From sequence record OR352939.1: a DNA stretch of 64,000 nucleotides, one strand, 5' to 3'. A program made the position numbers and the translations under genes. Shown piece by piece: positions 1,454 through 33,753 of the stretch. Numbering within the stretch: position 1 is the first letter of the stretch; every line of letters starts with the position of its first letter. Below the pieces are notes generated by a model. That model was not told the DNA's origin and searched no databases. It saw only the letters and a program-made list of their open reading frames with translations. This DNA is from Escherichia phage AV109.

Positions 1454-2002
1454 TTAACGAGCCCATTTGATAATTTCTGTAATCAAATAATTACGTTCGC
1501 TTGCATTAAATCCTATAACTTTGTTAGCACCATCATGATTAAGTAATTGATACGTTTGGATTTTGTTATGAATTGCAAACTCTTCAAAATGTGAAATGAC
1601 TGTATTAAAACCGAATGAAGACAAAGTAATAAGGTCGTCTTCAAAACTTTCAGTCATTTCGTTACGTGTTAAAATAATTGTGAACACATCATGGTTTTGG
1701 CAAAGACGAACATAATCCTGTTCATAAACGTCAAGAACCGAGTCCGCATCTTGTCGAATACGTCCATAAACCCAGTTACTAATATATCCACGGTCTAACA
1801 GATAAATCTTAGTAGGGTCTAAATAATTCAACATCGTTTCGAAACAGCCAACTTCATTTCGAGACTTAACATCGAAACGTCCATCAACTGTTCGTTTAGG
1901 GAAATCAATTTTTACATATCTTTCACTAATTTCCATTATGTCATTAATGAAAGTTGTTTTACCAGCATTATCCGGTCCATCTACTAAAATAATTTTAGCC
2001 AT
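1454..2002 (-). CDS. P-loop kinase, thymidylate-kinase-like fold (nucleotide/nucleoside kinase candidate)
   Basis: 182 aa; Walker A GPDNAGKTT near N-terminus, DRGYISNWVYG resembles TMPK DRY..S motif; start abuts stop of upstream ORF. Confidence 0.55.
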   Translation of the reverse strand: MAKIILVDGPDNAGKTTFINDIMEISERYVKIDFPKRTVDGRFDVKSRNEVGCFETMLNYLDPTKIYLLDRGYISNWVYGRIRQDADSVLDVYEQDYVRLCQNHDVFTIILTRNEMTESFEDDLITLSSFGFNTVISHFEEFAIHNKIQTYQLLNHDGANKVIGFNASERNYLITEIIKWAR

Positions 2003-2003
2003 T

Positions 2004-2903
2004 TTATTCCTCGATTACGACATCTTCATATTTAGGTATATTATATGGTGAAGAAATTAAAGCATTAAAGTAGATGAACTCACCAAGACCTGGATGAAAT
2101 ACTTCTTCAGGATTTTCGAAATATTGAATCTTCGGACGTCCTTTAAGAATTTGATAGTACTCAGTTTTAGTTGGTTTAAAAATTCGAATCAACGCTTCTT
2201 CAGGATACTTATTTCTGTCAAAGCTATTATTTGGATCGGTTATATAAAGCGGTTGACCTAATTGAATTGCGCATTCAACAACTTGTTCAAAACGATAGCA
2301 TGGGTCACTAATTCGAAATGGATGAAAAATACCATCTAGATGAATAGGAGCCAAATCACCTACAAGACGCTGCATGATGGAAGGACGTATAACTTTCTGC
2401 GTTACGATAATCTTATTACCATCTGCACCTGCGTTAACCAGCACTTCTTTTTGACGTTCATTCAACACAGTTGTTTGGATTGAACGATTAACCGACAATA
2501 TGTCGGTTTTTAAGAATTCGTCAATATAAAAACGTGGTTTATTAGGGTCTGCGGTGATATTGAAATTGAATTCTACATCAAAAGCGCCGTCATATCCAGT
2601 GATATCTGTGATTAGAAAATCACAATCATAATAAGCAATTAATGAATCAACCACAAATTCATTTTCAGACCAGAAATATTTACGAGTGTTATACGCGTTA
2701 TCTTTATACCATAATGGAACAAACTTAAATTCTGGAAAAAGACGTTCGCATTCTTTAATATCAGATGCATTACGTGGATATGTAATCACATCACCCGGAT
2801 TAGCACGGTGCAAATGAAGTTGGAAGTTGCCATCCTTAAGGATAGCATACTGTCCAGTTTCATAAGACCGCATACTCAAGATAGGTACGCGGAAAATAGC
2901 CAT
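2004..2903 (-). CDS. hypothetical protein occupying the position of T4 beta-glucosyltransferase
   Basis: 299 aa ORF; start overlaps gene 42 stop by 1 nt (TAATG); no motif I can assign. Confidence 0.55.
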   Translation of the reverse strand: MAIFRVPILSMRSYETGQYAILKDGNFQLHLHRANPGDVITYPRNASDIKECERLFPEFKFVPLWYKDNAYNTRKYFWSENEFVVDSLIAYYDCDFLITDITGYDGAFDVEFNFNITADPNKPRFYIDEFLKTDILSVNRSIQTTVLNERQKEVLVNAGADGNKIIVTQKVIRPSIMQRLVGDLAPIHLDGIFHPFRISDPCYRFEQVVECAIQLGQPLYITDPNNSFDRNKYPEEALIRIFKPTKTEYYQILKGRPKIQYFENPEEVFHPGLGEFIYFNALISSPYNIPKYEDVVIEE

Positions 2904-3619
2904 TAGTCAAGGAATCCTTTAACATAATCAAAATCACGTTCAAACACATGGGCACTTACCATGGTATGAGTATAATCACCAACTTCTACACCACATTCGT
3001 TAGCGATATAATGAAGTAATTTTCCTTGGAGATAAAAATCCAACTGCATAACAACAGCACAGTTCTGGGAACGCATATGACAGTGGGTATAAAGCTTACC
3101 GTCACGAATATAATAGGTCACTGAGTCAGTACATGGATATTCAAGCGTTTCGTCTGAATCAAGCAAAGCCTGATCAGAACTTTCTAGAATTTGGAACACA
3201 ACTCTTCGGGAGTTAGGCTTCTCTTTAAGTTCTTTTAGAAGAGCTGGTAATTGAGCCGCAATGCGAGGACCATAGAAAGTGTTGAAGTTCGCCGGCAAAA
3301 CATCTGATTTTGGTTTAGAAATAAATTTAGCGACATTAGGATATGCCTTAAACGCTTCTTCTGCGTTGGTACCACCAGAAATCATAAACTTCCAGAAGTC
3401 TTCGGCATATTCATAAGAGATGCGGTTAATACGTGGGTCGGTCATTTTGAATGATGATGGAGTGTCAACAACTACTGTCATAGACCCAATTTCATTACAA
3501 CGTCCAATACGAGAATCAGTTACGAATTCCGGGTTTTCTAAAATTTCACGATTGACTGCTTTAAATGCGGCTTGAAAATCTGCGGCTTTGATATATTTCA
3601 TTGTGTTATGTTTTCCCAT
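2903..3619 (-). CDS. 42: dCMP hydroxymethylase (thymidylate-synthase fold)
   Basis: 238 aa; CTDSVTYYIRDGKLY...HMRSQNCAVV region resembles T4 gp42 catalytic core; position between uvsX and 43. Confidence 0.85.
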   Translation of the reverse strand: MGKHNTMKYIKAADFQAAFKAVNREILENPEFVTDSRIGRCNEIGSMTVVVDTPSSFKMTDPRINRISYEYAEDFWKFMISGGTNAEEAFKAYPNVAKFISKPKSDVLPANFNTFYGPRIAAQLPALLKELKEKPNSRRVVFQILESSDQALLDSDETLEYPCTDSVTYYIRDGKLYTHCHMRSQNCAVVMQLDFYLQGKLLHYIANECGVEVGDYTHTMVSAHVFERDFDYVKGFLD

Positions 3620-3661
3620 GTTTACCTCAATACAATTTATTATATACTCAATTTGTAAAGC

Positions 3662-3901
3662 TTATTTGAATTTCTTGGCAATGTTGATATAACGTAAAGC
3701 TTCAGTATCAATACTTCCAAGAACACTATGAAGAAATGCATCAGCGTAGTATTCCAATTGAACAGGTTCTTTAATCACTTTAGCCGCTTTGGTTTCAAAC
3801 AGGCCCATCAGGGCCTTTTTAAGAATTTGTTCGTTAGTGTTCAGTTTAATAGTCAAAATCTCTTCGTTAAGTTTATAATTAAAAGTTTTTCTAGAAATCA
3901 T
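3662..3901 (-). CDS. hypothetical protein (79 aa)
   Basis: ORF; start overlaps stop of upstream 389-aa ORF (ATGA). Confidence 0.5.
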   Translation of the reverse strand: MISRKTFNYKLNEEILTIKLNTNEQILKKALMGLFETKAAKVIKEPVQLEYYADAFLHSVLGSIDTEALRYINIAKKFK

Positions 3902-5067
3902 TCCGGGTACCTCAAAGCGTCATCAGAGTTAGTTATATCAATAATAGATATAGAGTTTTCTGCTAACCCGTTTTTAGATAATTGACGTTTATAATATCTT
4001 TCACAATATGTACACGTCGTCCCGCAGATTTCATTAGCACAATCGAAATCTGGATGTCTGAACCACCTTTTTTCTAAAAAGCCATCTAACAAAGAGGTTT
4101 CAATATTTACTGTATGTGAAAACTCAGTTTCGTTTTCAAGAGTGAAAATGGTCTCTAAAGGCTTCCACAGTTCTAACAAATTACCTTCAAACTTTTCAGA
4201 AGCGTATGCTTCAAGAACTTTCAAAATGTAGTCTGTGCTACCTGTACGTCCTGAAACTTTGAATTGAGTGATACCAATATCATTATAAAGTTTCAAATCT
4301 TGAGGACGAACAAAACGAGTTCTCAACCAGTTAAATGGGTCTGTATCACGAGCTTTAATACAGTGCTGCATAGGATATCCGTTTAAGGATTTAGCATCAT
4401 CAGCTGTAACATCAGTACTATGGAAAATATAGCAAGAGTCACGATAGCTACAATGTGTTGTATACCCTTTACCAGCATTAGAACAGAACTCATTTACAAG
4501 AACTTCAAATATTATATTGTTCTTATTGCAAAACTCTGCTGCACGCTTCAGGAAAGAAACTGAACGGTTCTTATGAATTCCGCAGCAGACCTTTTTGATA
4601 TTATACTGGTCATGCAAGTATTTGATTTGAGTTACAGCATCGACATGTAGAATTGTTGAAACTTCAATCTCAATGTCTTTATTGACTTCACGAACAATTT
4701 CCATAACAACAGGGTTAGCGATAGTAATACGCCATACGCCTATTGACCAAAGATACTGAACATAATCCTGAATAGCTTTCTTCTTCCACTCAACTAGTTC
4801 TCTTTTTGAACCAGGATTTATCGTGTTGAGTGTATAGTTAAAGCAAATACCTAATTCGTTACAACGTTTAACGTAGTCTTCTAACATCTTTTTGTCAACG
4901 TCAGGAAGCCTAAAATCAGGTCTGGCTGCTACAAAAGCCATTTCTCTTGTAGAGCCATATACTTCGTTTATCAAGCTATTAGGATAGGTTTTATTGAGCT
5001 CTACGATTTTATCAAGAAGAGCTAAATCAAAATTCGTTCCGATTTTAAAAGTATTCATTTTTTGCAT
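3898..5067 (-). CDS. hypothetical Cys-rich protein; candidate transferase or Fe-S enzyme of the sugar-modification module
   Basis: 389 aa; EVLVNEFCSNAGKGYTTHCSYRDSC and C-terminal CANEICGTTCTYC cysteine clusters; loosely reminiscent of U32-family signature but not a strict match. Confidence 0.55.
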   Translation of the reverse strand: MQKMNTFKIGTNFDLALLDKIVELNKTYPNSLINEVYGSTREMAFVAARPDFRLPDVDKKMLEDYVKRCNELGICFNYTLNTINPGSKRELVEWKKKAIQDYVQYLWSIGVWRITIANPVVMEIVREVNKDIEIEVSTILHVDAVTQIKYLHDQYNIKKVCCGIHKNRSVSFLKRAAEFCNKNNIIFEVLVNEFCSNAGKGYTTHCSYRDSCYIFHSTDVTADDAKSLNGYPMQHCIKARDTDPFNWLRTRFVRPQDLKLYNDIGITQFKVSGRTGSTDYILKVLEAYASEKFEGNLLELWKPLETIFTLENETEFSHTVNIETSLLDGFLEKRWFRHPDFDCANEICGTTCTYCERYYKRQLSKNGLAENSISIIDITNSDDALRYPE

Positions 5068-5113
5068 CTCGCGTTAATTGATGCGATGGTTTTTGCAGGT
5101 CTTACTTAAATTA

Positions 5114-5500
5114 TTATAGATTCGGTTTATACGATTTAAATGTTTCGAATTCGCCTTTATTCATAAGAGCTTTGAATTCGTCAGGACGCATAGCTTTGTC
5201 GTCGATAATCCAATCATATACTGGTTTATGTGTTAGCAAATTATGGTACTTCAAGCCAATGTTTGCCAAGTTCTGAATCAGACTTGGGAGAATGTCAATT
5301 GCTATACGACCAGGACCTACTGACTTCATACCGCGAGCAGTGTAAAGCGTTATGGTATGCCCTGCATCATACAGGGCATTAATGGCAGACACCATTTCGA
5401 CGTCTGGTTTGAAGTTCACGTAATCACGATTGTTATTCCACTCTGTTATACAATCATCGACATCAAAACAAAGATTAAGCATGTTTTCTACACGGTGCAT
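5114..5500 (-). CDS. HAD-like phosphatase (putative sugar-phosphate phosphatase)
   Basis: Motifs FDVDDCIT, TLYTARG, conserved K, WIIDDKA consistent with HAD motifs I-IV; probable start at the ATG overlapping upstream stop (TAATG); track ORF extends to 5515. Confidence 0.5.
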   Translation of the reverse strand: MHRVENMLNLCFDVDDCITEWNNNRDYVNFKPDVEMVSAINALYDAGHTITLYTARGMKSVGPGRIAIDILPSLIQNLANIGLKYHNLLTHKPVYDWIIDDKAMRPDEFKALMNKGEFETFKSYKPNL

Positions 5501-7185
5501 TAGATTCGTTCCCATTGATGAGTGATATCGCCACCGATTGGACGATAGGAAACACCAGTTTCTTTATCAGTTAGTACCCATTTACCAGGATTTTTTGTAA
5601 TCAGAGTAGCCGTTACAGGTTCTGCTACGTCATAACTAATAGAGCCGTCCTGAAGTACACGGCCCATGTTACGTAATTGCTTAGTCAGAAGTTCCATACC
5701 TTTATAATATGCGGCTACCGCTTTAAGTGGATTATTCTTGAAATAACCACCTAATGCAATCCAGATAATTGCCACAGCCAAATGATGATATTCATTAAAC
5801 GAACTCAGCTTTCCATATTTGTAAACTAATGGATTGATGTTAATAGTCACATTACAAGTTGTTTCATCAATAGTAAACTGTCCCCAGGTCGGATTAGCAT
5901 TGAATTCATCATAACCTGAAACAGCATAAAGCACTTTAGCTTCATCATACAATTTTGGCCCGTAAATCTTGGTTTCACCAAAATATCCACGAGGGTCGAT
6001 AAATTTGACTTCGCCGTTATCAGTAATCATAGTATTACTGAAGTTCGGGTCACCATGAATAACAGAGTACTGTCCCTGAGAACGGTTATGATAACGAATA
6101 AGGTGTTCTAAAGCTTGTTTCAGCATTGGCTTCAGACGTCCAATCTTAGTGTAGTTCACATGTGTGATTTTACCAAATGAATCAATCAACGGTTGAATGC
6201 TTTCACAACGATCAATAACTTTCGTATAGAATTCTTTAGTGAAATCACGACGAACAGTTTCAGGACTTACAAAATAAGTGTCTGTGCTGAATTTCAGTGC
6301 ATCTAAAATTGCATCAACAATTTGTGGACGAGCAAGACTTGATTTGGATTTAATATATTCAAATGCCGGCTTACCTTTAATGCGTTCCATTTCAAAGTTA
6401 TTTTCATTAACAGAAACTAACTGAGGAACTGAATCTGATTTCACTTTAAGATACCATGAAATCTCATCTTTCTGAAGAGCTCGACCTTGTTCAGTTAATG
6501 CGAATTTAGTTACAGTTTCTTCACCAATTTCAACTGCATTAAAACTACGATTAAGTTCACGAACTTCATGAGCCTTTTCAAGTTTAGGCATATCACCAAG
6601 GTCGATGATATTCATAAGCTCTGATTTATTGAATGCGCCGCTGTAAAGGAATTCTACGAAATCACGTCCTTTGCAGTATTCATGAATTTCCTCATCGGTA
6701 GAACCCATGTAGAATTCCCAGTCTTTGAACTGGTAAATTCCCACAACATTACCACCTGTTGAACCTACGTTAGTGATATTTTCACCATCGAAATTATATC
6801 GACATTCGTCACCCTTAACATAGATTGCGTTAACATTCCAAGACCATGAACCAAAATCAGGAATAATATCACACCAGTTAACAATTACGTTATGGCCGTC
6901 TAAATCTTTGTGTAATTTAGCAAGAGCATAAGCAGAACCATACGCTTCATCGACTGTACGAATAGTCACATTGAACCCTTCTTGCTCACAATAAGCTCGA
7001 ACAGTTTCAGCAAATTTTGAATGAACTACTACAATAATTTCATCTGCGCCAAGGTCAGAATAAATTGTATACAAATTGCTCAGAATAGTGTCTTGTTTAT
7101 AGTTAACAAGCACCTTAGGAATATGGTGAGTAATTGGATATAAACGAGTTGCCAATCCAGCACCAAGAATAACAGCTTTTTTCAT
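5500..7185 (-). CDS. bifunctional sugar-1-phosphate nucleotidyltransferase (N-terminal) / sugar kinase (C-terminal, APH/choline-kinase fold)
   Basis: 561 aa; N-terminal ILGAGLATRL nucleotidyltransferase glycine loop; C-terminal HGDPNFSNTMI...FIDPRGYFG kinase catalytic loop; SD GAGGA upstream. Confidence 0.8.
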   Translation of the reverse strand: MKKAVILGAGLATRLYPITHHIPKVLVNYKQDTILSNLYTIYSDLGADEIIVVVHSKFAETVRAYCEQEGFNVTIRTVDEAYGSAYALAKLHKDLDGHNVIVNWCDIIPDFGSWSWNVNAIYVKGDECRYNFDGENITNVGSTGGNVVGIYQFKDWEFYMGSTDEEIHEYCKGRDFVEFLYSGAFNKSELMNIIDLGDMPKLEKAHEVRELNRSFNAVEIGEETVTKFALTEQGRALQKDEISWYLKVKSDSVPQLVSVNENNFEMERIKGKPAFEYIKSKSSLARPQIVDAILDALKFSTDTYFVSPETVRRDFTKEFYTKVIDRCESIQPLIDSFGKITHVNYTKIGRLKPMLKQALEHLIRYHNRSQGQYSVIHGDPNFSNTMITDNGEVKFIDPRGYFGETKIYGPKLYDEAKVLYAVSGYDEFNANPTWGQFTIDETTCNVTININPLVYKYGKLSSFNEYHHLAVAIIWIALGGYFKNNPLKAVAAYYKGMELLTKQLRNMGRVLQDGSISYDVAEPVTATLITKNPGKWVLTDKETGVSYRPIGGDITHQWERI

Positions 7186-7226
7186 GTTGTGGTCCTCATT
7201 GGTAAGTAGGAGTATTGTACACTATT

Positions 7227-7370
7227 CTAGTTAAAGCATTCATACTTTGCTTGTAGTCCAATCATAATCCATCCAATTACAAGTGTTGGAATCATTACCG
7301 GAGCCGTTAAGCTCCAGTAGATAGTCATGACAAGCATCAATAGTAAAAGTCCTATTGTTATTGCTTTCAT
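7227..7370 (-). CDS. small hydrophobic membrane protein (47 aa), not in ORF track
   Basis: MKAITIGLLLLMLVMTIYWSLTAPVMIPTLVIGWIMIGLQAKYECFN; ATGA overlap with SIS gene stop; SD GAGG 8 nt upstream. Confidence 0.45.
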   Translation of the reverse strand: MKAITIGLLLLMLVMTIYWSLTAPVMIPTLVIGWIMIGLQAKYECFN

Positions 7371-8002
7371 TGTTCGCCTCGTAACATGGCACCTAGTGCA
7401 CCGCCTGGATGGAACTTAAGGAAATCATTAGAGGTAAATCCACGTTCAGACGAAAGGTTGATAGCAAACGTATCGATAAGCGCTAACAACAATGTAGTGG
7501 ACATTGTCGGAGCTAAAGAGTTCTCGTCAACTTCTACCGCGATACCAGTACAGAACGTATAATCAAAAAGAGCTTCGTATTCTTGTGGAATGTCAGGGTT
7601 ACAATGTAACAGAATCTGTTTAACCTGAGGACGAATCATACGAAGATGTTTAGCAACACCTATCATTTCTTCAGTCTTACCAGAACGACTAATATGAATC
7701 AACACGTCATTAGGTGCAATAAATCCTGCGTCACCATGAGAATAATGCCCAGTGTTCAAATACATGCTAGGAATACCTAGTGAAGCAAATGTCTCGGAAG
7801 CTTTAGTTGCGATATTAGCATTCTTACCAACACCTGTAATAATTACCCGGCTTTCATAATTACTAAGTCCAGGGCGTCGAAGAGTTTCTAGAATAGCATT
7901 ATAACGAGCAGGGTTTTGACTAATTACTTTGGCCATAGCGGCCAAAGAAGAAGCTTGTTTTATGATTGCGTCAATAGCGATAGTAATAGGAGTAGTTTTC
8001 AT
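7367..8002 (-). CDS. SIS-domain sugar-phosphate isomerase, arabinose-5-phosphate isomerase (KdsD/KpsF) type without CBS domains
   Basis: 211 aa; GVGKNANIATK, SRSGKTEE, LAPTMSTT and HPGGALG motifs characteristic of API SIS domains. Confidence 0.8.
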   Translation of the reverse strand: MKTTPITIAIDAIIKQASSLAAMAKVISQNPARYNAILETLRRPGLSNYESRVIITGVGKNANIATKASETFASLGIPSMYLNTGHYSHGDAGFIAPNDVLIHISRSGKTEEMIGVAKHLRMIRPQVKQILLHCNPDIPQEYEALFDYTFCTGIAVEVDENSLAPTMSTTLLLALIDTFAINLSSERGFTSNDFLKFHPGGALGAMLRGEQ

Positions 8003-8042
8003 ATTTCTCTCATTTAATTAGTTTACCGTCCATGGCATTATA

Positions 8043-10754
8043 TCAAAAATCGAACATATCGAACAGAGATGCTTTCTTCTCGTAATCGAGTTTCGCTGCT
8101 GATGTGAATCCTTCAAGTGGTTTAATAAATGTCTTCTCAAGGAGAACAGTGTAGTCCATCCAATGAAGTACGTCGTCTTTAATTAAATCTGTGATTTCAG
8201 TACCAGAAGGCCATGCGATACATTTATCACCGAATGGGTTTCCTTCACGTAAAGGCAGAACATATACTTTTTCACCTTCTACAACTTGTGGTGCATCAAT
8301 ATTACCTTTGATAGCTCGGTTATATGTCAGAATTCCACGAATATGAAACGGGCATTTAGGACCAGGGAATCCACCGACATCATATTTAGCAATGTTATTC
8401 GCAGAAGATACCGACGCGATGCTAATATAATTCAATTGACGGAATTCTTTTTCAAACTCTTTAAAATATTCTTGTAATGATTCTTCACCTTCTTGAAGCA
8501 TACGACGAATACATTCTTTAAGAGCTTTCTGTACTGCTTTAGGAGTCGAAGATTTCTGAGTCTCTAGACCCATGATTTTGAGTTTAGGCTCAGCATAACG
8601 AGTGCCTTCCATATCCCACACGTTTAATGCATAACGTTTCTTACCAGTCCAGAATCCACCAATACCTTTAGAACCGAGCGGAGGGCCAGCAATAGCTTCT
8701 CGGTCCATGAACATTAAGTGTTGTTTATTGTTCATGTATTCACACATTTCACGGAAACCTCTATCAATAGCTGGTTCCATACGTTCACGTGCAAACTTAT
8801 CTAAGAAGTCTACCCAATGGTTTGTATCACGGAATTTAGATTCACCAACCTTATCGATAATTTTATCAGCAGATACGTAAATAGAGTCTGTATCACCATA
8901 AAGAACGAAAGCTTCACCTTCTGTACCACAAACTTCATTCAGATATTCATTAACTTTACGTTCAATCCACTGTAAAGCCATTTGACCAAATGTTGTGATT
9001 GCAGTTGCATTACGCAAATCATAATAACGGAACCAAACGTTTCCAAGTGCACCATAAAGTGAGTTGATAAGCAATTTACGGTTAATTTGGGCAGTCATAC
9101 CCGCAACTTCAGTACGTTGAGCTCTAAACAACATTTCATTAAGAGATTTAGCAGACAACTTTTTAATCTTTTCTTTAATCTCATCGCTGAAGTCGAAACG
9201 ATAATCAACATCTAATGGTTCGTCAACAGAAAGATTAGGATTATGCAATGCCTCTTTAATTATTTCACCATTACGTTGAGCTGCAAGCATGTAACCTTTA
9301 TGTTCTTTACGTTGATTAAAGACCTTAGTGATTTCAGTTGGAACTACACCATCACGGTCTTTATAATACATCATGCCGTTAGGAGAACAACTGTACACAT
9401 CTGAAGGACGTTCAGCGATTGCGTTAATATAATCATGTAATGGAGCTACTTTAAACGTTCCTGCTATTGTTTCTGGGCTAATATTCACTTGGCGAATGAT
9501 GCTTGGATACAGAGATGTAAGGTCGAAACTCATTACATATTTGTATCGATTTGGAATAGGTTCCTTAACAAAAGCGCCAGGATAAGGTTGAACCGGGTGA
9601 GAACGACCTTGTGGAATCACCTTGTTCTGCTCTTTAAGGCTATTAAAAATAATAGCATCCCAAGTTTTAATTGGACTGAACACAGATTGAATCTGAATTT
9701 TAGCATAATAACCCATGTCCAAGCTCAAGTTGATGAACTGACGCTTAGAATCAATTTGCAATACACGATACACGTCGATAATGTTATAAGAAATATATCG
9801 TTGGTGATTGCTTTCACGAAGCTTAGAAATAGGGCCGTCATATTTCAGTTTACCAACGTTCAATTCAAATTCTGAAATGTAATCCAGAGAATACGACGGT
9901 TGATTGGTAAAAGAGAATTTTTTGTAAAGGTCAATGTAATCAAGAACAGAGATACCGAACAATGTAATGATTTCACGAGAACCATACATGTTTTCGATAA
10001 CTTTAACACGAGTTTTACGATGTGGCGATAAACGTTTCGCAGTAGATTCGCCAAAAATATTCTTGATTCGGTTATACACATATGGAATATCAAATGACTC
10101 AACGTTCCATCCAGTCAAAATGACAGGAGTTTTCTGTTGCCAGAAGTTGAGATATTCCATCAACAATTCTTTTTCGTTATCGAACGGCATATAAATGATT
10201 TTATCGATAATTTCAGATGGAACTTCATCACCGCCTTGTTCTTGAAGCTTAGCAGCGATTTCAATAGACCATTCTTCTACATTACCATACGGAGAATTCA
10301 ATAGATCAAATACGTAGAACCTGTCGTCAATTGAGTCATAATGGGTGATAGCATCAATAGGATGCTTTGCTTGTGCCGGCTCAGGGAACCCGTCCGGAGA
10401 TGTTACTTCGATGTCGAAGTTAGCCACACGAATTTTTGTATGGTCGTATTTGATTTCATAGTTATAAGTGTCAGACAAATACGCCAATTTGAAATCGTCC
10501 ATGCCAAGTGCTTCAAGTCCGATATCTTCCATGCGTTTAATCCATTGGGAGGCATCACGCATATTAGCGAACAACTTACGAGTACACGGCTTACCGTAGA
10601 TATCGAAATATTTCGTAGCCTGACTTTCCGGACAATGAGCAAACAGTGATGGTTTATATTCTACTTCACGAGTACGTTCACGGCCATTAGAATCGATGTA
10701 ACGTTCAAAAATTGAATCACCAATCTGTTCAACCGTTAAGTAAAATTCTTTCAT
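8043..10754 (-). CDS. 43: DNA polymerase (family B), RB69-type gp43
   Basis: 903 aa; sequence from MKEFYLTVEQIGDSIFERYIDSNGRERTREVEYKPSLFAHCPESQATKYFDIYGKPCTRKLF onward matches the RB69 polymerase as I recall it. Confidence 0.98.
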   Translation of the reverse strand: MKEFYLTVEQIGDSIFERYIDSNGRERTREVEYKPSLFAHCPESQATKYFDIYGKPCTRKLFANMRDASQWIKRMEDIGLEALGMDDFKLAYLSDTYNYEIKYDHTKIRVANFDIEVTSPDGFPEPAQAKHPIDAITHYDSIDDRFYVFDLLNSPYGNVEEWSIEIAAKLQEQGGDEVPSEIIDKIIYMPFDNEKELLMEYLNFWQQKTPVILTGWNVESFDIPYVYNRIKNIFGESTAKRLSPHRKTRVKVIENMYGSREIITLFGISVLDYIDLYKKFSFTNQPSYSLDYISEFELNVGKLKYDGPISKLRESNHQRYISYNIIDVYRVLQIDSKRQFINLSLDMGYYAKIQIQSVFSPIKTWDAIIFNSLKEQNKVIPQGRSHPVQPYPGAFVKEPIPNRYKYVMSFDLTSLYPSIIRQVNISPETIAGTFKVAPLHDYINAIAERPSDVYSCSPNGMMYYKDRDGVVPTEITKVFNQRKEHKGYMLAAQRNGEIIKEALHNPNLSVDEPLDVDYRFDFSDEIKEKIKKLSAKSLNEMLFRAQRTEVAGMTAQINRKLLINSLYGALGNVWFRYYDLRNATAITTFGQMALQWIERKVNEYLNEVCGTEGEAFVLYGDTDSIYVSADKIIDKVGESKFRDTNHWVDFLDKFARERMEPAIDRGFREMCEYMNNKQHLMFMDREAIAGPPLGSKGIGGFWTGKKRYALNVWDMEGTRYAEPKLKIMGLETQKSSTPKAVQKALKECIRRMLQEGEESLQEYFKEFEKEFRQLNYISIASVSSANNIAKYDVGGFPGPKCPFHIRGILTYNRAIKGNIDAPQVVEGEKVYVLPLREGNPFGDKCIAWPSGTEITDLIKDDVLHWMDYTVLLEKTFIKPLEGFTSAAKLDYEKKASLFDMFDF

Positions 10755-10812
10755 TTAATTTCCTTTAGACGAGTTATTGTCTTTTGTTTGTTGATGAACT
10801 TATTATACTCCA

Positions 10813-10832
10813 AATGGGACCGAAGTCCCATT
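10813..10832 (-). promoter_or_regulatory. UUCG-tetraloop hairpin in regA-43 intercistronic region (candidate translational operator or RNA stability element)
   Basis: aatgggac-cgaa-gtcccatt perfect 8-bp inverted repeat, 3 nt after regA stop and about 58 nt upstream of gene 43 ATG. Confidence 0.4.
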
Positions 10833-10835
10833 GCT

Positions 10836-11213
10836 TTAATTACCAATTGTATATTTTGCTTTCAAAGTCCAGTCATCTTTCTGTTTAAAAGAGATAACAC
10901 GGAAGTTATTAGTAAGGCCAAATAGATCTTCACGAGCAGAGTCTTCAATAACAATCAAGCCCCAGTCTTCAAGCAACTGAGCAATCGAATCACGTCGTTG
11001 GTAGTCTTCACCATCAATATCAACCTGACGTCCGTCCATACGCAGCATTTCTTTAAAGTGGACGATGTAGTATTTACCTTGCTTTTGGAGGATATGACAA
11101 GACTGATAAAGAACTTTATCCTTGTTATTAGCGATGCCCATACGGGTCAGAGTCTCTTTGACTTTCAGAAAATCTTCAGGGTTCTTCAATTTAATTTCAA
11201 TCATTTTTACCAT
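10836..11213 (-). CDS. regA: RegA translational repressor
   Basis: 125 aa; [41 protein letters not shown] resembles T4 RegA; overlaps gene 62 end. Confidence 0.9.
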
Positions 11214-17229: not shown

Positions 17230-18248
17230 TGTGTTGCCTCAATATAAAGTTCGTTGGAATATTTGACCAGCGCTTCTCTGTCTTCATCTGAGATATCTGG
17301 AATCGCGTCAATATATTCTTTAATGATATCTTGAAGTGATTTAATCTCGATTTCCTGGTCGTCATCAGATTCAACACTGTTATCAACTTTAGAAACCATA
17401 CGAAGAGAGTGAACTACTTTTTCAAGTTCAGATTCAAACTTAGTCAACTCTGAATCAATTTCTGATACTATAACACGTACGGCTAGATTAGTATAATCAG
17501 AATAATTGATTTTGCCTTTAAATGGATAAGTGATTCGTCGATGCCATGTTGTTTCATTAGGAATAAATTCCATACGTTCAACATCAGTGTCAAATACCCA
17601 GAATCCGCGAGGGTCGTTCTCATCACCTGCAGTAAGGGTCCATGGTGTCCCAATATATTTGACGTTAGCAGCTTCAGAGATTGTGTGGAAGTGGCCAGAC
17701 CAGACTTGTTTATAGGTCTTTAAGAAATCAGGTTCAAGCCCATGAGACTTCATTCCTTTATAGAAATAGAAGCCATTTAATTCCCAGTGCCCAACACAAT
17801 ACGCTGCAGAAGAAGTCTTGATGTGCTCTAAGATTTCACCTGTATTTTCTTCACACATCCATGGAATCAAATCAATCAAGCACCCATCAAAATCTACTGT
17901 AGTTGGCTTATCATAAATTATTACGTTTTTACGATGGCTCAATAATTCTTGAACAGTGTTAGGATATAAGGTTGTTTTATAAAAGAGATCATGATTCCCA
18001 AGTATTGTATGGACTGTTATACCAGCGGCTTCCACCAAATCAAACATTTCACGCGTGAATTCCATACAACGTTGTGTGGTGTGGGCTCTGACATCAAATG
18101 TATCACCATATTGAATCCATGTTGTTATTCCATTTGCGACGGAATAGTCGATCATTTGTCTGAAACCGTCACGTTGTATAGCTTGAATCCAATCGTCGTC
18201 TTTTTTGACGCCTAGATGCAAATCGCCTATATTAAGTATTTTCATCAC
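17226..18248 (-). CDS. 47: recombination nuclease subunit gp47 (Mre11/SbcD-like phosphoesterase)
   Basis: 340 aa; GDLHLG, GNHD, GHFH metallophosphatase motifs; T4 gene order. Confidence 0.92.
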   Translation of the reverse strand: MMKILNIGDLHLGVKKDDDWIQAIQRDGFRQMIDYSVANGITTWIQYGDTFDVRAHTTQRCMEFTREMFDLVEAAGITVHTILGNHDLFYKTTLYPNTVQELLSHRKNVIIYDKPTTVDFDGCLIDLIPWMCEENTGEILEHIKTSSAAYCVGHWELNGFYFYKGMKSHGLEPDFLKTYKQVWSGHFHTISEAANVKYIGTPWTLTAGDENDPRGFWVFDTDVERMEFIPNETTWHRRITYPFKGKINYSDYTNLAVRVIVSEIDSELTKFESELEKVVHSLRMVSKVDNSVESDDDQEIEIKSLQDIIKEYIDAIPDISDEDREALVKYSNELYIEATQ

Positions 18249-19048
18249 ATACCTTTAAATTTGGAGTAAATTATATTGTGGTACGATATATCAGGAAACC
18301 CTTTATCGACCGCAATTTTTCTAAACTTATTAGGACTTATTTTACCACACTCCATCCATAATGCAAACAACTCGTCAAAATGCTCATATGCTGGACCTCG
18401 ACGAGCTTTTGACACAGCAGCACTTATGCGAGCCTTTTTCTCAGAATCAAGGTTTTTAAGAGAATTACTTATTTTATTTTTTTGCTCTTCTGAATTGAAG
18501 GTGCCTTTTTCCCAGCCTAAAGGTTGGCTTCCTTCATGGAACATTTTTCTTGAAGTTCCATTGGTATACCATATTTTACCTTTATTGTGCCCTGATGCTT
18601 TATATTTTGGTGAGCGTCCTTTTATAAATCCTTCAGGTATAGTAGGAGCAAATGTTTGTTCAAGGGTTTCTGGGTTATACGAATGTATGTTATTTTTGGC
18701 GTTATGAGACCCATATAATGGGTGATTTTTACCAGAAACATCACGCCCAAAGAAACCAGTTGGTGATGCCAAAGACATATTCATATACAAAGGATTTTTA
18801 TGAGCTTGAACTCTAATTTGATAGTCCTTTTCCACCTTTAAAGCTTCTTCTCGTGTTGGATGTTCGCTCAAAATACAAGAATCAAACAACGTAGGATTTT
18901 CTAAAAGTTCTTTGTTATAAATTTTACGATAGGCTTTAGATAGAATAGTACCATGATACCCGTTTAAATGTTTTTCTAAGCTAGTCGAACCTATGTAAAA
19001 AGGTGGTAGCTTATCTCCAGAATAAATTGTCAAATAGACTATAAACAT
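18245..19048 (-). CDS. GIY-YIG-like seg-type homing endonuclease at the position where T4 carries alpha-glucosyltransferase
   Basis: Probable start MFIVYLTIYSGDKLPPFYIGSTS at 19048 with AAGGAG SD 7 nt upstream; track ORF extends to 19117. Confidence 0.55.
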   Translation of the reverse strand: MFIVYLTIYSGDKLPPFYIGSTSLEKHLNGYHGTILSKAYRKIYNKELLENPTLFDSCILSEHPTREEALKVEKDYQIRVQAHKNPLYMNMSLASPTGFFGRDVSGKNHPLYGSHNAKNNIHSYNPETLEQTFAPTIPEGFIKGRSPKYKASGHNKGKIWYTNGTSRKMFHEGSQPLGWEKGTFNSEEQKNKISNSLKNLDSEKKARISAAVSKARRGPAYEHFDELFALWMECGKISPNKFRKIAVDKGFPDISYHNIIYSKFKGM

Positions 19049-19072
19049 ATATTTCTCCTTTGATTTAAGGAG

Positions 19073-19102
19073 ATTATAACACGCCTTTAATGAAGCGTAA
19101 AC
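19073..19102 (-). promoter_or_regulatory. T4-type early promoter (GTTTAC -35, TATAAT -10) driving the seg-like gene
   Basis: Minus strand GTTTAC, about 17-18 nt spacer, TTATAAT, then SD AAGGAG. Confidence 0.45.
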
Positions 19103-19127
19103 AAAAAAAGGAAGCACTAGGCTTCCT
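19103..19127 (-). terminator. rho-independent terminator (minus strand)
   Basis: aggaagc-actag-gcttcct hairpin followed on the minus strand by a run of seven T. Confidence 0.5.
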
Positions 19128-23098: not shown

Positions 23099-23569
23099 TT
23101 AATCATGTTTCCACACCCCATCGGTATTTGACCAAAGTCGCTGATTATCTGATCCTCGCCACAGTTTTTTGGTCGGAAGATTTTTCTCATACTTCCCATC
23201 AATAATAACATCAACATATTTAAGCATTTCTAGTTGTTTAATATCTTCAAACTTATATCCTGTCCACAACCAAATGCTTTTATTGGGATAAAGATTTTTT
23301 ACTGTTTGAACAATGCAATGAATAACATCTCGGTTATCAGGATAGAGAGGGTCACCTCCGGTTATAGTTAATCCTTCTATATAATCATTATTCAAACATT
23401 CAATTAATTGTTCTAGTGTTTCACCAGTGAATGGAATACCATTTCTAGCATTCCATGTTGATTTATTATAACACCCTTCGCATTTATGCAAACAACCTGT
23501 AACGAAAAGAACGACCCTGCATCCAGGGCCATTCACAAAATCGCAAGGATAAAATCTATCATAATTCAT
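23099..23569 (-). CDS. nrdG: anaerobic ribonucleotide reductase activating protein NrdG (radical SAM)
   Basis: 156 aa; CLHKCEGC cysteine motif; 4-nt overlap with nrdD. Confidence 0.9.
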   Translation of the reverse strand: MNYDRFYPCDFVNGPGCRVVLFVTGCLHKCEGCYNKSTWNARNGIPFTGETLEQLIECLNNDYIEGLTITGGDPLYPDNRDVIHCIVQTVKNLYPNKSIWLWTGYKFEDIKQLEMLKYVDVIIDGKYEKNLPTKKLWRGSDNQRLWSNTDGVWKHD

Positions 23570-25383
23570 TGGTGTTTAACCCTATGCATTATTTCTTTAT
23601 TTTTACCGAGATTAAATCCGCGTTCGTTCGGATTTCCCAAATAACCGCATGTTCTTCTTATGGTGTTCATCTTTTTAGGATCAGTTTCTCCACAGATAGA
23701 ACAAACAAATCCGTTTTCAGTAGGAGTCATTTCATGGGTACTTCCACATGTAAAACATTTATCTACTGGCATATTAACACCAAAATAATCTAAATGCTGT
23801 GCAGCATAATCCCACACGGCCTCAAGACCTTTTAAGTTATTTTTCATATCAGGAAGTTCAACATAAGAAATGTGACCACCTGTCGCAATGAAATGATACG
23901 GCGCTTCACGAGAAATCTTTTCAAACGGAGTAATATTTTCTTCTACTGAAACGTGGAAACTGTTAGTGTACCAGCCTTTATCGGTAACATCTTTTACACT
24001 TCCATATTTTTCTGTATCAAGTTTACAGAAGCGATAACAAAGGTTTTCAGCAGGAGTAGAATACAAACTAAAAGCAAAACCAGTTCTTTCAGTCCACTGT
24101 TTAAGATGAGCATTCATTTTAGTTAAAATTTCTTGTCCAATATCACGACCGACAAGAATATTCAATTCATGAATACCGATGTATCCTAAAGACACTGAAC
24201 TTCTACCGTTTTTAAATAGCTCAATTATATCGTCATCAGGTTTAAGACGAACCCCGAATGCACCTTCTTGGTAAAGAATAGGAGCAACAGTCGCTTTAAC
24301 TCCTTTTAAGGAACTAATTCTACACATCAAAGCTTCAAAACACAGGTCCATTCGTTCATTGAATAATTCAACAAATTTCTGTTCATTGAACTGTGTTCCA
24401 ATATAAGAATCTAATGCGATACGAGGAAGATTCAGTGTTACAACGCCGAGATTATTACGACCGTCAAGAATTTCATTTCCAGTTGAATCTTTCCATACGC
24501 TCAAGAAACTACGGCAACCCATCGGAGAAACTGGAACTGAAGAACCGGTAATAGCTTTATTATTCTTAACTGAAATAATGTCAGGATACATTCTTTTGCT
24601 TGCACATTCTAACGCAAGTTGTTTAATATCATAGTTTGGATCATCTTTATAAAGATTAACACCTTCTTCAAAAAACATAACAAGCTTAGGGAAAATAGGA
24701 GTTATTCCATCACGTCCAAGGCCTTTAATGCGGTTTTTAAGAATTGCCTTCTGAATCATTCGTTCAGTCCAGTCAGTTCCCGTACCAAATGTAATTGTCA
24801 CAAAAGGCGTTTGTCCGTTTGAACTAAAGAGAGTGTTTACTTCATATTCATAAGCTTGGAATGCATCGTATACGTCTTTTTCTGTTTTAGATTGAGCATA
24901 ATTCAGAATGTCTGGTATTTGCCATTTTTCTGCATCTTCAACATGTTTAGCGTATGTGCGTTTAACATAAGGAGAAAGAACTTTATCGACATTCGCAAAT
25001 GTAGTTCCGCCATACTGGTGTGAAGCAACTTGTGCAGTAATTTGTGCCATAATTGCAGTAGCAACGCCAATAGATTTAGGCGTTTCAATTTGAGCATTGC
25101 CTAATTTAAATCCATTCTCAAGCATTCCTTTTAAATCTACTAAACAGCAATTAGTAAAAGGCAATGATATACTATAATCTAAATCGTGAAAATGAATTAA
25201 TCCGACATTATGAGCATTTACAATATGGCTCGGAAGAATACTACAAGCGATATGTTTAGAAACAATACCGGCCATTAAATCTCTTTTTGTTGGAAAGACA
25301 CGAGAATCTTTGTTGGCATTTTCGGTATTTAATTCTTTATCTTTATTTGAAATAAAATTTAAAACATCTTTCTCTAAAGACAT
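23566..25383 (-). CDS. nrdD: anaerobic ribonucleoside-triphosphate reductase NrdD
   Basis: 605 aa; C-terminal glycyl-radical motif RTCGYLG and zinc-ribbon CxxC pairs. Confidence 0.97.
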   Translation of the reverse strand: MSLEKDVLNFISNKDKELNTENANKDSRVFPTKRDLMAGIVSKHIACSILPSHIVNAHNVGLIHFHDLDYSISLPFTNCCLVDLKGMLENGFKLGNAQIETPKSIGVATAIMAQITAQVASHQYGGTTFANVDKVLSPYVKRTYAKHVEDAEKWQIPDILNYAQSKTEKDVYDAFQAYEYEVNTLFSSNGQTPFVTITFGTGTDWTERMIQKAILKNRIKGLGRDGITPIFPKLVMFFEEGVNLYKDDPNYDIKQLALECASKRMYPDIISVKNNKAITGSSVPVSPMGCRSFLSVWKDSTGNEILDGRNNLGVVTLNLPRIALDSYIGTQFNEQKFVELFNERMDLCFEALMCRISSLKGVKATVAPILYQEGAFGVRLKPDDDIIELFKNGRSSVSLGYIGIHELNILVGRDIGQEILTKMNAHLKQWTERTGFAFSLYSTPAENLCYRFCKLDTEKYGSVKDVTDKGWYTNSFHVSVEENITPFEKISREAPYHFIATGGHISYVELPDMKNNLKGLEAVWDYAAQHLDYFGVNMPVDKCFTCGSTHEMTPTENGFVCSICGETDPKKMNTIRRTCGYLGNPNERGFNLGKNKEIMHRVKHQ

Positions 25384-26195
25384 AATTCTAATTTATCCTT
25401 TTGAAATTCTTCGTCTAAATATGGGTTCCAACCCATTTTAAACCTTTTGATGAAATTATCAATTCTAAATTTCGGTAAATTTAACTCCGCAAAAATAGAT
25501 GATTTACTTTTAAAATCTGGACCTAAATAATCATATAAAATTTCTGCGTATTTTAACCATAATATATAAGTACCAGATTTAATTGCGTTCGGAGTTTTCC
25601 AAGGTTTTACACCATACATCGGATTTCCACTTCCTTTATGCCTGATAGAAGATGAAATTCCAATTTTAATTTTAGCTTCCTTTGTATGCGAAAATCCACG
25701 ATGCGGATTTTCTTTCCAGTATTTTTTAGCAGCTTCTGATATTTTCTTTCTGGCTAAATTAGTATGATGCTTTCCATAAAATCCATGATTTTTGCCTTTA
25801 TTACGATTTCTTTTAATCATGGTTATTGATTGCTTTTCTCTAGTTTCTTTAGAAGGAGAAATACCATATGTCGTAAATTTGCCATCAGCATATGCTAAAT
25901 TAAAATACTCTTTATTCCATACATCTTTTTCTATATTCTTTTGAAATTCAGCTTCAATGCTAGTTATTTGTTCATCTCCGACTAATTGAAAATATAATAT
26001 TTCAACTTTCGGCGTTTCTTTCAATAAGGCTTTTTGAAATTCGGAAGATGACGAAGACGAATAATAAAATTTACCATTTTTATCAATAATATTCGTTCCA
26101 TCAAAAGTGCAATTGGTTTTACTTCCAATGTAATAATATGGTGGGGTTTTAGCATTAATTCTATTAATAAATGATAGTTTATATACTACATTCAT
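25374..26195 (-). CDS. GIY-YIG-like seg-type homing endonuclease inserted between gene 49 and nrdD
   Basis: 273 aa; N-terminal VVYKLSF...YYYIGSK; ATGA overlap with gene 49 stop and 10-nt overlap with nrdD start. Confidence 0.55.
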   Translation of the reverse strand: MNVVYKLSFINRINAKTPPYYYIGSKTNCTFDGTNIIDKNGKFYYSSSSSSEFQKALLKETPKVEILYFQLVGDEQITSIEAEFQKNIEKDVWNKEYFNLAYADGKFTTYGISPSKETREKQSITMIKRNRNKGKNHGFYGKHHTNLARKKISEAAKKYWKENPHRGFSHTKEAKIKIGISSSIRHKGSGNPMYGVKPWKTPNAIKSGTYILWLKYAEILYDYLGPDFKSKSSIFAELNLPKFRIDNFIKRFKMGWNPYLDEEFQKDKLELCL

Positions 26196-32763: not shown

Positions 32764-33753
32764 TCATTTATAGTATGAATTGTGGTTTTCTAAGTAGACT
32801 TGCTCAAGAAAGTCATCCCAGAAACTCATATCTACTTTTTGCTGCATACCATTCTTTGCGGCTTGTTCTGCCGCATGTTCAACTTGGTCAACGATATCTT
32901 CTAGGAATTCCTGTACGGTTTTAAACGTATGTTTACCAAGCTTAACATCGAGAATAAATGGAGCATCCTGAAGCGGGTAAACCAGGTCGCCAGTTTTGTA
33001 AATTTCTAAGAGCTGAAGTCCACCACGGCATGCATGACTCAATGCTTTCCAATCAATACCTTCATTGGCTTCTGCCTTACGAGCACGTTCACCATAGTTC
33101 TCTTCAAGTTTAACCAGGATGGCATTGAACTCTTTGTTAGTTAACGTATCTTGGAATTTACGGTCCAACAGACTATAAAATGTTTGCTTACCTGTTTTCT
33201 CGTTTTCGGTTTCAACCCATGAAGCAAATTCACCTATAGGCAGAACATTCTTCATATGGGATAAACGAATTACTGCACCATTATCAAAGTATTGTCCCCA
33301 TTCATTAGAACGTTTAAGGGCTTGACGAAGAACAGCCAGTCGAGAACCCTTGACACCGTATTTAGAAGCTTGCTTACGGACATACCCTAAATAAGATTTC
33401 ATGTTAGTAGTATAGAAACGAGACCTGTTATCTTGAATATACTTCCATACATCAGGCAAATCAGATTTAACTACTAGACTTTGTGGAGTGTGAAGCATAT
33501 CTAATGCGACGGTTTCACCATCCGCAGCTAGTTTAAAGAAATATTTGAGACTGTACAACTCATGGTCCACGTCGTCTTTTGTGTTCTTAGAAGATGTGTT
33601 ATTCGTGTTCTTGCTCATGTGTTCTTTAACGTTACCGGTCAAAATATCACGAGCATGAGGGACATAAATTTCTTTAAAATCGATGTCAGATTCAGGAGTA
33701 GACGTTCCATAAAGGTGGCTACCAAAGTAAGCCTTAACAATCGTTTTCATCAT
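32764..33753 (-). CDS. nucleotidyltransferase-fold protein (pol-beta superfamily signature)
   Basis: 329 aa; N-terminal YFGSHLYGTSTPESDIDF fits the G[SG]x9-13Dh[DE]h motif; ATGA coupling with upstream gene. Confidence 0.5.
   Translation of the reverse strand: MMKTIVKAYFGSHLYGTSTPESDIDFKEIYVPHARDILTGNVKEHMSKNTNNTSSKNTKDDVDHELYSLKYFFKLAADGETVALDMLHTPQSLVVKSDLPDVWKYIQDNRSRFYTTNMKSYLGYVRKQASKYGVKGSRLAVLRQALKRSNEWGQYFDNGAVIRLSHMKNVLPIGEFASWVETENEKTGKQTFYSLLDRKFQDTLTNKEFNAILVKLEENYGERARKAEANEGIDWKALSHACRGGLQLLEIYKTGDLVYPLQDAPFILDVKLGKHTFKTVQEFLEDIVDQVEHAAEQAAKNGMQQKVDMSFWDDFLEQVYLENHNSYYK

Follow-up and report, generated by a model that had tools for sequence, protein, structure and literature searches.

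A block of nine minus-strand genes at positions 1454-8002 of a 64,000-nucleotide stretch of Escherichia phage AV109 (sequence record OR352939.1; the whole stretch is called the window below) is very probably the Mosigvirus, or RB69-type, module for DNA that carries arabinosylated 5-hydroxycytosine. This cluster is already in the literature (Thomas 2018; Mahler 2025, Cell Host Microbe; He 2026, Nat Chem Biol; Lee 2026, NAR), and the pathway that we re-derived from sequence is described there, including the correction of the base to 5-hydroxycytosine. An initial annotation of this DNA correctly recognized a known system and gave it an outdated chemical reading. The remaining interest lies in a divergent U32-family, putatively iron-sulfur (Fe-S), protein encoded within the block and its possible link to prephenate.

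Identity of the gene block

All nine open reading frames (ORFs) were recovered by ORF listing at the coordinates of the initial annotation, between uvsX (183-1355) and the gene for DNA polymerase gp43 (8043-10754), and the junction overlaps and the HPGGALG and LAPTMSTT motifs reported there were borne out. ATGA overlaps join the SIS isomerase gene to a gene for a 47-amino-acid (aa) peptide and the U32 gene to a 79-aa gene, and a TAATG overlap joins the genes for a 238-aa ThyA homolog and a 299-aa protein. The 299-aa gene and a 182-aa kinase gene are 1 nt apart, the 561-aa and 133-aa genes overlap by 16 nt, and the remaining junction gaps are 40-46 nt.

A nucleotide search found the whole block in ~150 phage genomes (Mosigvirus), with 95-99% identity and coverage of 80% or more, and the ORF pattern is thus not due to chance. 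Over its first 11 kb, the window shares 97.6% identity with phage RB69, a Mosigvirus, and the window ORFs correspond one-to-one and in the same order to RB69p045-p055. Two genes that are intact single ORFs here, for the predicted transferase (2004-2903) and the kinase/nucleotidyltransferase (5500-7185), are split in the RB69 reference NC_004928 into p046/p047 and p052/p053 (2598-3498 and 6095-7781 in the coordinates of the RB69 locus). Resequencing of RB69 gave one 561-aa ORF, and the splits in the RB69 reference are regarded as sequencing errors (PMC6024577); the intact ORFs in the window agree with that view. For AV109, the predicted pathway draws support from near-identity to RB69- and HY126-type phages, from a D169N substitution in the ThyA homolog, and from the GT-B fold of the 299-aa protein.

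Synthesis of 5-hydroxycytosine

The ThyA homolog (2903-3619, minus strand; 238 aa; RB69p048 equivalent) is predicted to be a flavin- and O2-dependent 5-hydroxy-dCMP synthase with the thymidylate synthase fold. It matched Protein Data Bank (PDB) entries 9IQC, 9IR2, and 9IQU at E ~1e-160, with 5 of 238 residues differing (~98% identity), and the Pfam family Thymidylat_synt at E 2e-15. In E. coli ThyA numbering, its residues are L143E, C146, D169N, and N177D, with the D169N/N177D/L143E signature carried in the motifs MRSQN...QLD and EYPC. D169N is diagnostic of 5-hydroxy-dCMP synthases (RB69 gp48, DLP3 gp80, and the HY126 enzyme), and RB69 gp48 makes 5-hydroxy-dCMP using a loosely bound flavin and oxygen from O2, as determined by 18O2 labelling (PMC13326640). 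The predicted synthase identity of the AV109 protein thus follows from the D169N signature and the ~98% identity to 9IQC.

The initial annotation had instead taken the embedded gene for gene 42, with gp42 making hydroxymethyl-dCMP and with free arabinose being rephosphorylated at C1, activated, and placed on hydroxymethylcytosine (hmC). The gene does lie at the gene 42 position, and its product shares with the gp42 family the thymidylate synthase fold, the catalytic Cys146, and the Asp at the N177 position that confers dCMP specificity. It is, however, only 25% identical to T4 gp42, which retains Asp169 where the AV109 protein has Asn, and T4 dCMP hydroxymethylase structures were not among its best 60 PDB matches. 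Asn169 and the low identity together argue strongly against a T4-type gp42 dCMP hydroxymethylase.

Published chemistry has moved in the same direction. Thomas et al. 2018 detected arabinose in the DNA of RB69 and reported it as ara-hmC (PMC6024577), which would favor hmC as the acceptor, as would a computational label for gp51 in Table 1 of PMC13326640, "dephosphorylates Araf5p to Ara," for the free-arabinose step. Against both stand mass spectrometry and nuclear magnetic resonance (NMR) data on RB69 DNA, in which the sugar is ether-linked straight to C5 (Lee et al., NAR 2026, PMC13326640); the base is therefore 5-hydroxycytosine and not hmC. NicPhage, another Mosigvirus, likewise bears the sugar directly on the C5 oxygen, its DNA contains mono- and di-arabinosyl-dC, and the report on it calls the 2018 hmC assignment erroneous (PMC13390438). 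A route through arabinose-1,5-bisphosphate is biochemically supported for HY126 AfhE and AfhF, as far as the summary in PMC13326640 conveys. We consider the hydroxymethyl version very unlikely. The initial annotation, in naming arabinosyl-hmC for RB69, was right about the sugar and wrong about the base.

In the favored 5-hydroxycytosine pathway, the ThyA-fold enzyme would hydroxylate dCMP at C5 by means of flavin and O2. A deoxynucleoside monophosphate kinase homologous to T4 gp1 and RB69 gp159 is encoded outside the cluster at 51496-52230 on the minus strand (Pfam DNMK PF21448, E 2e-96), and RB69 gp159 phosphorylates 5-hydroxy-dCMP (PMC13326640). The AV109 kinase would convert 5-hydroxy-dCMP to the diphosphate, host enzymes would form the triphosphate, and the phage polymerase would incorporate it.

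Synthesis of UDP-arabinofuranose

The first gene of the predicted sugar branch (7367-8002, minus strand; RB69p055 equivalent) encodes a 211-aa protein with both HPGGALG and LAPTMSTT. It matched Pfam SIS (E 4.8e-10) and the NCBIfam models KpsF/GutQ TIGR00393 (E 5e-32) and KdsD (E 2e-30). The match spans model positions 2-153 of 268, the C-terminal tandem CBS domains being absent, and the protein is therefore a SIS-only variant of arabinose-5-phosphate isomerase; the missing CBS pair also accounts for scores below the full-length TIGR00393 and KdsD cutoffs. The RB69 SIS protein has been assigned as the isomerase that converts ribulose-5-phosphate to arabinofuranose-5-phosphate (PMC13326640). The isomerase type and the ribulose-5-phosphate starting point given in the initial annotation thus held up.

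The 561-aa protein (5500-7185, minus strand; RB69p052+053) has the architecture of AfhE, a bifunctional sugar kinase and NDP-sugar pyrophosphorylase in which an N-terminal nucleotidyltransferase is fused to a C-terminal APH/choline-kinase-like domain. Residues 3-99 matched NTP_transferase (E 8e-10), with further matches to NCBIfam sugar-1-phosphate nucleotidylyltransferases, and a GAGLATRL motif is present; residues 344-409 gave weak kinase-family matches and contain the catalytic-loop motif HGDPNFSN. The 133-aa product of the next gene (5114-5515, minus strand; RB69p051 equivalent) is a small HAD-type phosphatase of the AfhF and EcbF/BcbF type, with matches to a solved phage enzyme, PDB 9IQW (E 7.8e-88), to 1XPJ (E 5e-10), and to the NCBIfam capsule biosynthesis phosphatase TIGR01689 (E 4e-13).

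According to the summary of He et al. 2026 in PMC13326640, HY126 AfhE is both kinase and pyrophosphorylase, AfhF is a Mg-dependent phosphatase, and the route runs from arabinose-5-phosphate through arabinofuranose-1,5-bisphosphate and arabinofuranose-1-phosphate to UDP-arabinofuranose. By analogy, the AV109 isomerase would form arabinose-5-phosphate from ribulose-5-phosphate, the kinase domain of the 561-aa protein would phosphorylate it at C1, the HAD phosphatase would remove the 5-phosphate from the bisphosphate, and the nucleotidyltransferase domain would convert arabinofuranose-1-phosphate to UDP-arabinofuranose. Of the earlier proposal for NDP-arabinose synthesis, the enzymes (fused nucleotidyltransferase/kinase and HAD phosphatase) therefore stand, whereas the free-arabinose step gives way to the bisphosphate as summarized for HY126.

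The least probable of the alternatives considered is that the cluster makes another pentose, such as xylose, or a heptose or KDO precursor: a Thanatos study raises UDP-xylose in connection with a related cluster, RefSeq annotators name the HAD protein "phosphoheptose isomerase," and the pathway logic follows the ADP-heptose route, but arabinose is favored because the isomerase is of the KpsF/GutQ/KdsD arabinose-5-phosphate type and because the DNA of RB69, 97.6% identical here, bears D-arabinofuranose by NMR and gas chromatography-mass spectrometry (PMC13326640).

Transfer of arabinose to DNA

The 299-aa protein (2004-2903, minus strand; RB69p046+047), listed as an unknown in the initial annotation, is a compact glycosyltransferase with a two-Rossmann GT-B (GT4-like) fold, encoded at the T4 beta-gt position; a PDB sequence search with it returned no match. 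It is the predicted first DNA arabinosyltransferase and would place the first arabinose on the 5-hydroxyl of cytosine in DNA. A second transferase of the RB69 gp3 type would add the next arabinose; its gene is expected on the rIIA side of uvsX, a region beyond the window. No homolog of T4 alpha-gt or beta-gt was found across the 64 kb by tblastn with the T4 proteins (best E 0.48). This matches what the initial annotation had noted, and its central idea of a DNA-glycosylation module in place of the T4 glucosyltransferases agrees with the arabinose found in RB69-type DNA (PMC6024577, PMC13326640).

Two points about this step count against the pathway as drawn for AV109. Both the UDP carrier and the anomeric specificity assigned to the 299-aa transferase are known from close relatives and not from AV109, and Table 1 of PMC13326640 gives RB69 gp46:47 as a predicted arabinosyltransferase, with no mark of experimental confirmation for the activity.

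Another ORF of interest for transfer lies at the T4 alpha-gt/mobB position, between genes 47 and 55 (18245-19117, minus strand; 290 aa, GTG start, overlapping the start of gene 47). As a glycosyltransferase it was rejected: its sole match was a weak one to GIY-YIG (E 0.005), and for that reason it is probably a homing-endonuclease-like insert rather than a transferase.

A divergent U32-family protein as a candidate anaerobic hydroxylase

The 389-aa, Cys-rich product of 3898-5067 (minus strand; RB69p050/gp50 equivalent) scored 42.2 bits against Pfam Peptidase_U32 (gathering cutoff, 22.4). A profile of the phage family aligned with E. coli TrhP, RlhA, UbiU, and UbiV by hhalign (96% probability, E 4e-9), and pairwise identity to characterized U32 hydroxylases is 18-23%. 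The AlphaFold2 model is a TIM barrel (mean predicted local distance difference test score, 85.8) whose top PDB fold is the U32 protein 5D88, while a PDB sequence search gave no match. Ten Cys residues are invariant in 22 sequences down to 46% identity. Among them, the CX5C pair C206/C212 falls on the canonical CX6C in the alignment, with C236 close to CX3C; the fourth ligand position is not evident, and an extra CX4CX3CX2C is present at the C terminus.

U32 proteins have been put forward as a new class of O2-independent, prephenate-dependent hydroxylases with prephenate as the oxygen source: RlhA is required for 5-hydroxycytidine in 23S rRNA (ho5C2501), TrhP for ho5U34 in tRNA, and UbiU/UbiV for ubiquinone (PMC10990095). 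We propose, with confidence only slightly above even, that the phage protein depends on prephenate, and not on O2, to hydroxylate pyrimidines at C5. It would be a second C5 hydroxylase, one that supplies 5-hydroxycytosine to the phage when O2 is absent, and such an anaerobic route beside the flavin/O2 enzyme would parallel TrhO/TrhP and UbiIHF/UbiUV. The proposal was drawn from the U32 family match and the ten invariant Cys residues, from neighboring chorismate mutase and DAHP synthase genes, from conservation, from absence among the listed Acinetobacter matches, from metagenomic loci without a D169N ThyA homolog, and from retention of NrdD and NrdG in the window. The last two are the anaerobic ribonucleotide reductase (605 aa; 23099-25383, minus strand) and its activase (25374-26195, minus strand).

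Gene neighborhoods and distribution of the U32 family

In Erwinia phage Virsaitis27, a CM_2 chorismate mutase gene overlaps the U32 stop codon (Pfam E 1.7e-11). A tblastn search with the Virsaitis27 protein found the enzyme in the cluster of 54 phage records, with hosts in Serratia, Klebsiella, Yersinia, Enterobacter, Proteus, Edwardsiella, Pectobacterium, Providencia, Morganella, Shewanella, and E. coli. At the six loci inspected, chorismate mutase follows U32 directly or past one or two ORFs, and even in a rearranged Shewanella phage cluster the two genes are still adjacent and overlapping. The phage enzymes keep the AroQ catalytic residues R11, R28, K39, E52, S84, and Q88.

DAHP (3-deoxy-D-arabino-heptulosonate 7-phosphate) synthase is the entry enzyme of the shikimate pathway. 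On an unrelated contig from a PolIII-type phage, its gene (NCBIfam E 2.6e-70, versus 3e-17 for KDO8P synthase) comes immediately after that of a U32 homolog with 54% identity. Positions 3289-10804 of the 80-kb PolIII-type metagenomic contig SRR13394437_29825 encode in a row His_Phos_1, a 299-aa-type transferase, SIS, an AfhE homolog, U32, DAHP synthase, and an NDP-sugar epimerase/reductase-like protein. By gene content, this row is a putative second, distant pentosyl-hydroxypyrimidine module with a shikimate-pathway gene.

The phage U32 proteins constitute a distinct family, with ~440 clusters at E<=1e-30, and all nine homolog-bearing contigs inspected were phage-like in gene content. U32 is by far the most conserved protein of the cluster: among phages of Klebsiella, Proteus, Yersinia, Serratia, and Shewanella its identity is 82-89% and that of AfhE only 42-73%, which is unusually strong purifying selection on a 389-aa enzyme.

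In other metagenomic phage loci, U32 stands in line with the thymidylate kinase-like (TMPK-like) kinase and the 299-aa-type transferase, some adding AfhE, SIS, TAGT-type glycosyltransferases, or UDP-galactopyranose mutase. The contigs were seen in part, and within the 13-21 kb read per contig there was no D169N ThyA homolog; searches of these loci with hidden Markov models (HMMs) likewise found no chorismate mutase, no member of the 79-aa family, and no ThyA-type hydroxylase save one canonical ThyA. In two of them, L026 (7777-16179) and L025 (8405-21095), U32 lies between the TMPK-like kinase and the 299-aa-type transferase, with dUTPase/DCD and UDP-galactopyranose mutase nearby. A TAGT-family glycosyltransferase gene overlaps the U32 stop codon in L026, and neither locus has a ThyA-like gene in the 21 kb read. 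These two loci suggest DNA modifications of a galactofuranosyl type, for which U32 by itself may suffice.

The same distribution bears on a different role, in which U32 is an electron-transfer or reductase partner that supplies reduced flavin to the 5-hydroxy-dCMP synthase or reduces a sugar or heterocycle. Ten invariant Cys residues, which probably hold two Fe-S clusters, would suit such a protein; the ThyA-type hydroxylase requires reduced flavin; and gp50 is labelled "sugar or heterocycle reductase" in PMC13326640. A reductase, however, leaves unexplained both the recurrent chorismate mutase and DAHP synthase neighbors and the loci with U32, transferase, and kinase that have no flavin hydroxylase in 13-21 kb, and Acinetobacter and Dhakavirus phages possess the flavin enzyme without U32. 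We regard this role as possible but unlikely.

It is improbable that U32 acts away from DNA precursors, as a collagenase-like protease or, in the manner of RlhA and TrhP, by modifying rRNA or tRNA of the host. Database names ("peptidase," "collagenase-like protease") point that way, and the characterized RlhA and TrhP do act on RNA, but the protease role has been superseded for the U32 members studied (PMC10990095), and distant phages always embed U32 in nucleotide-metabolism, glycosyltransferase, or replication modules.

The distribution of U32 follows host aerobiosis only in part. Acinetobacter is a strict aerobe. AfhE is carried by 57 Acinetobacter phage records, Acinetobacter was not among the U32 matches listed, and Acinetobacter phage Kimel has the cluster without U32. 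A strict rule was nevertheless rejected, since U32 is also absent from the E. coli Dhakavirus WG01. The WG01 cluster (6440-11151) encodes a 166-aa ORF, AfhE, HAD, kinase, the D169N hydroxylase, and transferase, and has no U32, chorismate mutase, or recognizable SIS isomerase. U32 is thus dispensable for some enterobacterial phages that have arabinose genes and the D169N hydroxylase.

Besides WG01 and the partial view of the metagenomic contigs, several points speak against U32 as a C5 hydroxylase. An HMM built from the phage chorismate mutases found none in the AV109 window, and AV109 is therefore tied to prephenate through homology with its relatives. Of the canonical four-Cys U32 motif, the 389-aa protein keeps only a part. 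In vitro hydroxylation has so far been demonstrated for no U32 protein (PMC10990095), and the published label for gp50 is that of a reductase. The text of PMC13326640 nowhere mentions U32, iron-sulfur, or chorismate, and a literature search turned up nothing that connects the modification of phage DNA with U32, prephenate, or chorismate; He 2026 and Mahler 2025 were outside that search and may assign or exclude a role.

If U32 is indeed an O2-independent hydroxylase, gut phages would gain an anaerobic route to 5-hydroxycytosine, and the replication of an obligately cytosine-replacing phage in the anoxic gut, despite an O2-needing hydroxylase, would be explained. Chorismate mutase and DAHP synthase in phages would be explained as auxiliary genes for prephenate supply. 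The family would be a large one, and in some phages U32 would perhaps be the sole hydroxylase feeding a DNA glycosyltransferase. A phage U32 enzyme whose product can be read by liquid chromatography-mass spectrometry of plasmid DNA, the assay applied before to gp48, would also give the U32 field a simple in vivo test.

Small genes of the block and other features

The 79-aa protein (3662-3901, minus strand; RB69p049 equivalent), whose gene is ATGA-coupled to the U32 gene, may be a U32 accessory. It resembles the small ORFs that separate U32 from chorismate mutase in Serratia phage 92A1 and Yersinia phage fHe-Yen9-01 (phmmer E ~1e-11), with which it has the motif EYYxDAFxHS in common, and it has no Pfam or NCBIfam match (Pfam at E<=10). 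Because relatives have chorismate mutase at that position, the 79-aa ORF was tried as an AroQ (CM_2) chorismate mutase and rejected (BLASTP E 16 versus the Virsaitis27 enzyme; no hit of the phage chorismate mutase HMM in the window). Retention of the small genes varies by lineage: Mosigvirus has the small ORF only, Kpn BM7 has chorismate mutase only, and Marfa has neither. The 114-aa chorismate mutase of Virsaitis27 (locus 7158-7502) starts MRRINHTMNELVIKS, which resembles the start of the 74-aa ORF of 92A1, MNRINHNLNERLVKC (locus 6771-7249). Owing to this resemblance, the Virsaitis27 gene looks like a deletion fusion of the small-ORF N terminus to chorismate mutase.

The 182-aa protein (1454-2002, minus strand; RB69p045 equivalent) is a putative thymidylate-kinase-like P-loop kinase with the P loop GPDNAGKT. 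It gave sub-threshold dTMP-kinase matches only (residues 3-28, E 0.007); structural similarity to TMPK has been reported for the RB69 counterpart (PMC13326640). Clusters from Acinetobacter, Shewanella, and Dhakavirus phages pair homologs of 37-46% identity with the transferase, and homologs also occur in the metagenomic U32 loci (E ~1e-6). The 47-aa hydrophobic peptide (7227-7370, minus strand; RB69p054 equivalent), ATGA-coupled to the isomerase, has two hydrophobic stretches with Kyte-Doolittle 19-residue means of up to 2.17, and an equal-sized ORF follows the isomerase in Virsaitis27 and fHe-Yen9-01.

The gaps at 8003-8042, 3620-3661, 5068-5113, and 1356-1453 (40-98 nt) each contain a TATAAT-like hexamer. 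Lying inside and flanking the cluster, these hexamers suggest several putative internal early or middle promoters rather than one operon transcript. TATAAT-like examples on the minus strand are GATATAATG, GTATATAATAA, CTATAATAA, and GTATATAATCA.

Elsewhere in the window, an ORF with a NUMOD3 motif (homing-endonuclease-like) lies directly upstream of nrdD and overlaps it. A 329-aa ORF at 32764-33753 (minus strand) has an RlaP Pfam domain (RNA-repair-pathway nucleotidyltransferase; E 7e-13) and is unrelated to the cluster. No homolog of T4 imm was found in the window by tblastn.

Comparison with known systems

The closest counterparts of the AV109 block are RB69 gp45-gp55 and the Afh cluster of phage HY126, which it matches gene for gene and in gene order; PDB 9IQC and 9IQW are near-identical to its hydroxylase and phosphatase, respectively. 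In RB69, the gp3-type second transferase is accompanied by a dCTPase, likewise on the rIIA side of uvsX. Compared with hmC glucosylation in T4 (gp42, alpha-gt, and beta-gt), the RB69-type system differs in its base, a hydroxyl introduced with flavin and O2 rather than a hydroxymethyl group introduced with folate, and in its sugar donor, a phage-made UDP-arabinofuranose rather than host UDP-glucose.

GmhA, HldE, and GmhB constitute the ADP-heptose route of lipopolysaccharide synthesis in Gram-negative bacteria. The phage sugar branch has the same four-step logic and folds, namely, a SIS isomerase, a bifunctional kinase/nucleotidyltransferase, and a HAD bisphosphate phosphatase, and a GmhB-like fold match is given in PMC13326640. 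The two routes differ in the sugar, a heptose in one and the pentose arabinofuranose in the other, and in its destination, since the phage product is placed on DNA. The kinases differ as well, that of HldE being ribokinase-like and that of the phage 561-aa protein being of the APH/choline-kinase type.

With RlhA, TrhP, UbiU, and UbiV, the phage U32 protein has in common the TIM barrel, its conserved Cys residues match their Fe-S motif in part, and pyrimidine C5 hydroxylation is a chemistry that the phage also needs. It differs from them in its altered CX6C...CX3C, in its extra four-Cys motif, and in its presumed substrate, which would be a deoxynucleotide or DNA. Paired aerobic and anaerobic enzymes are known in TrhO/TrhP, UbiI-H-F/UbiU-V, and NrdAB/NrdDG, and gp48 together with gp50 would repeat this pattern if the two are redundant, as we infer.

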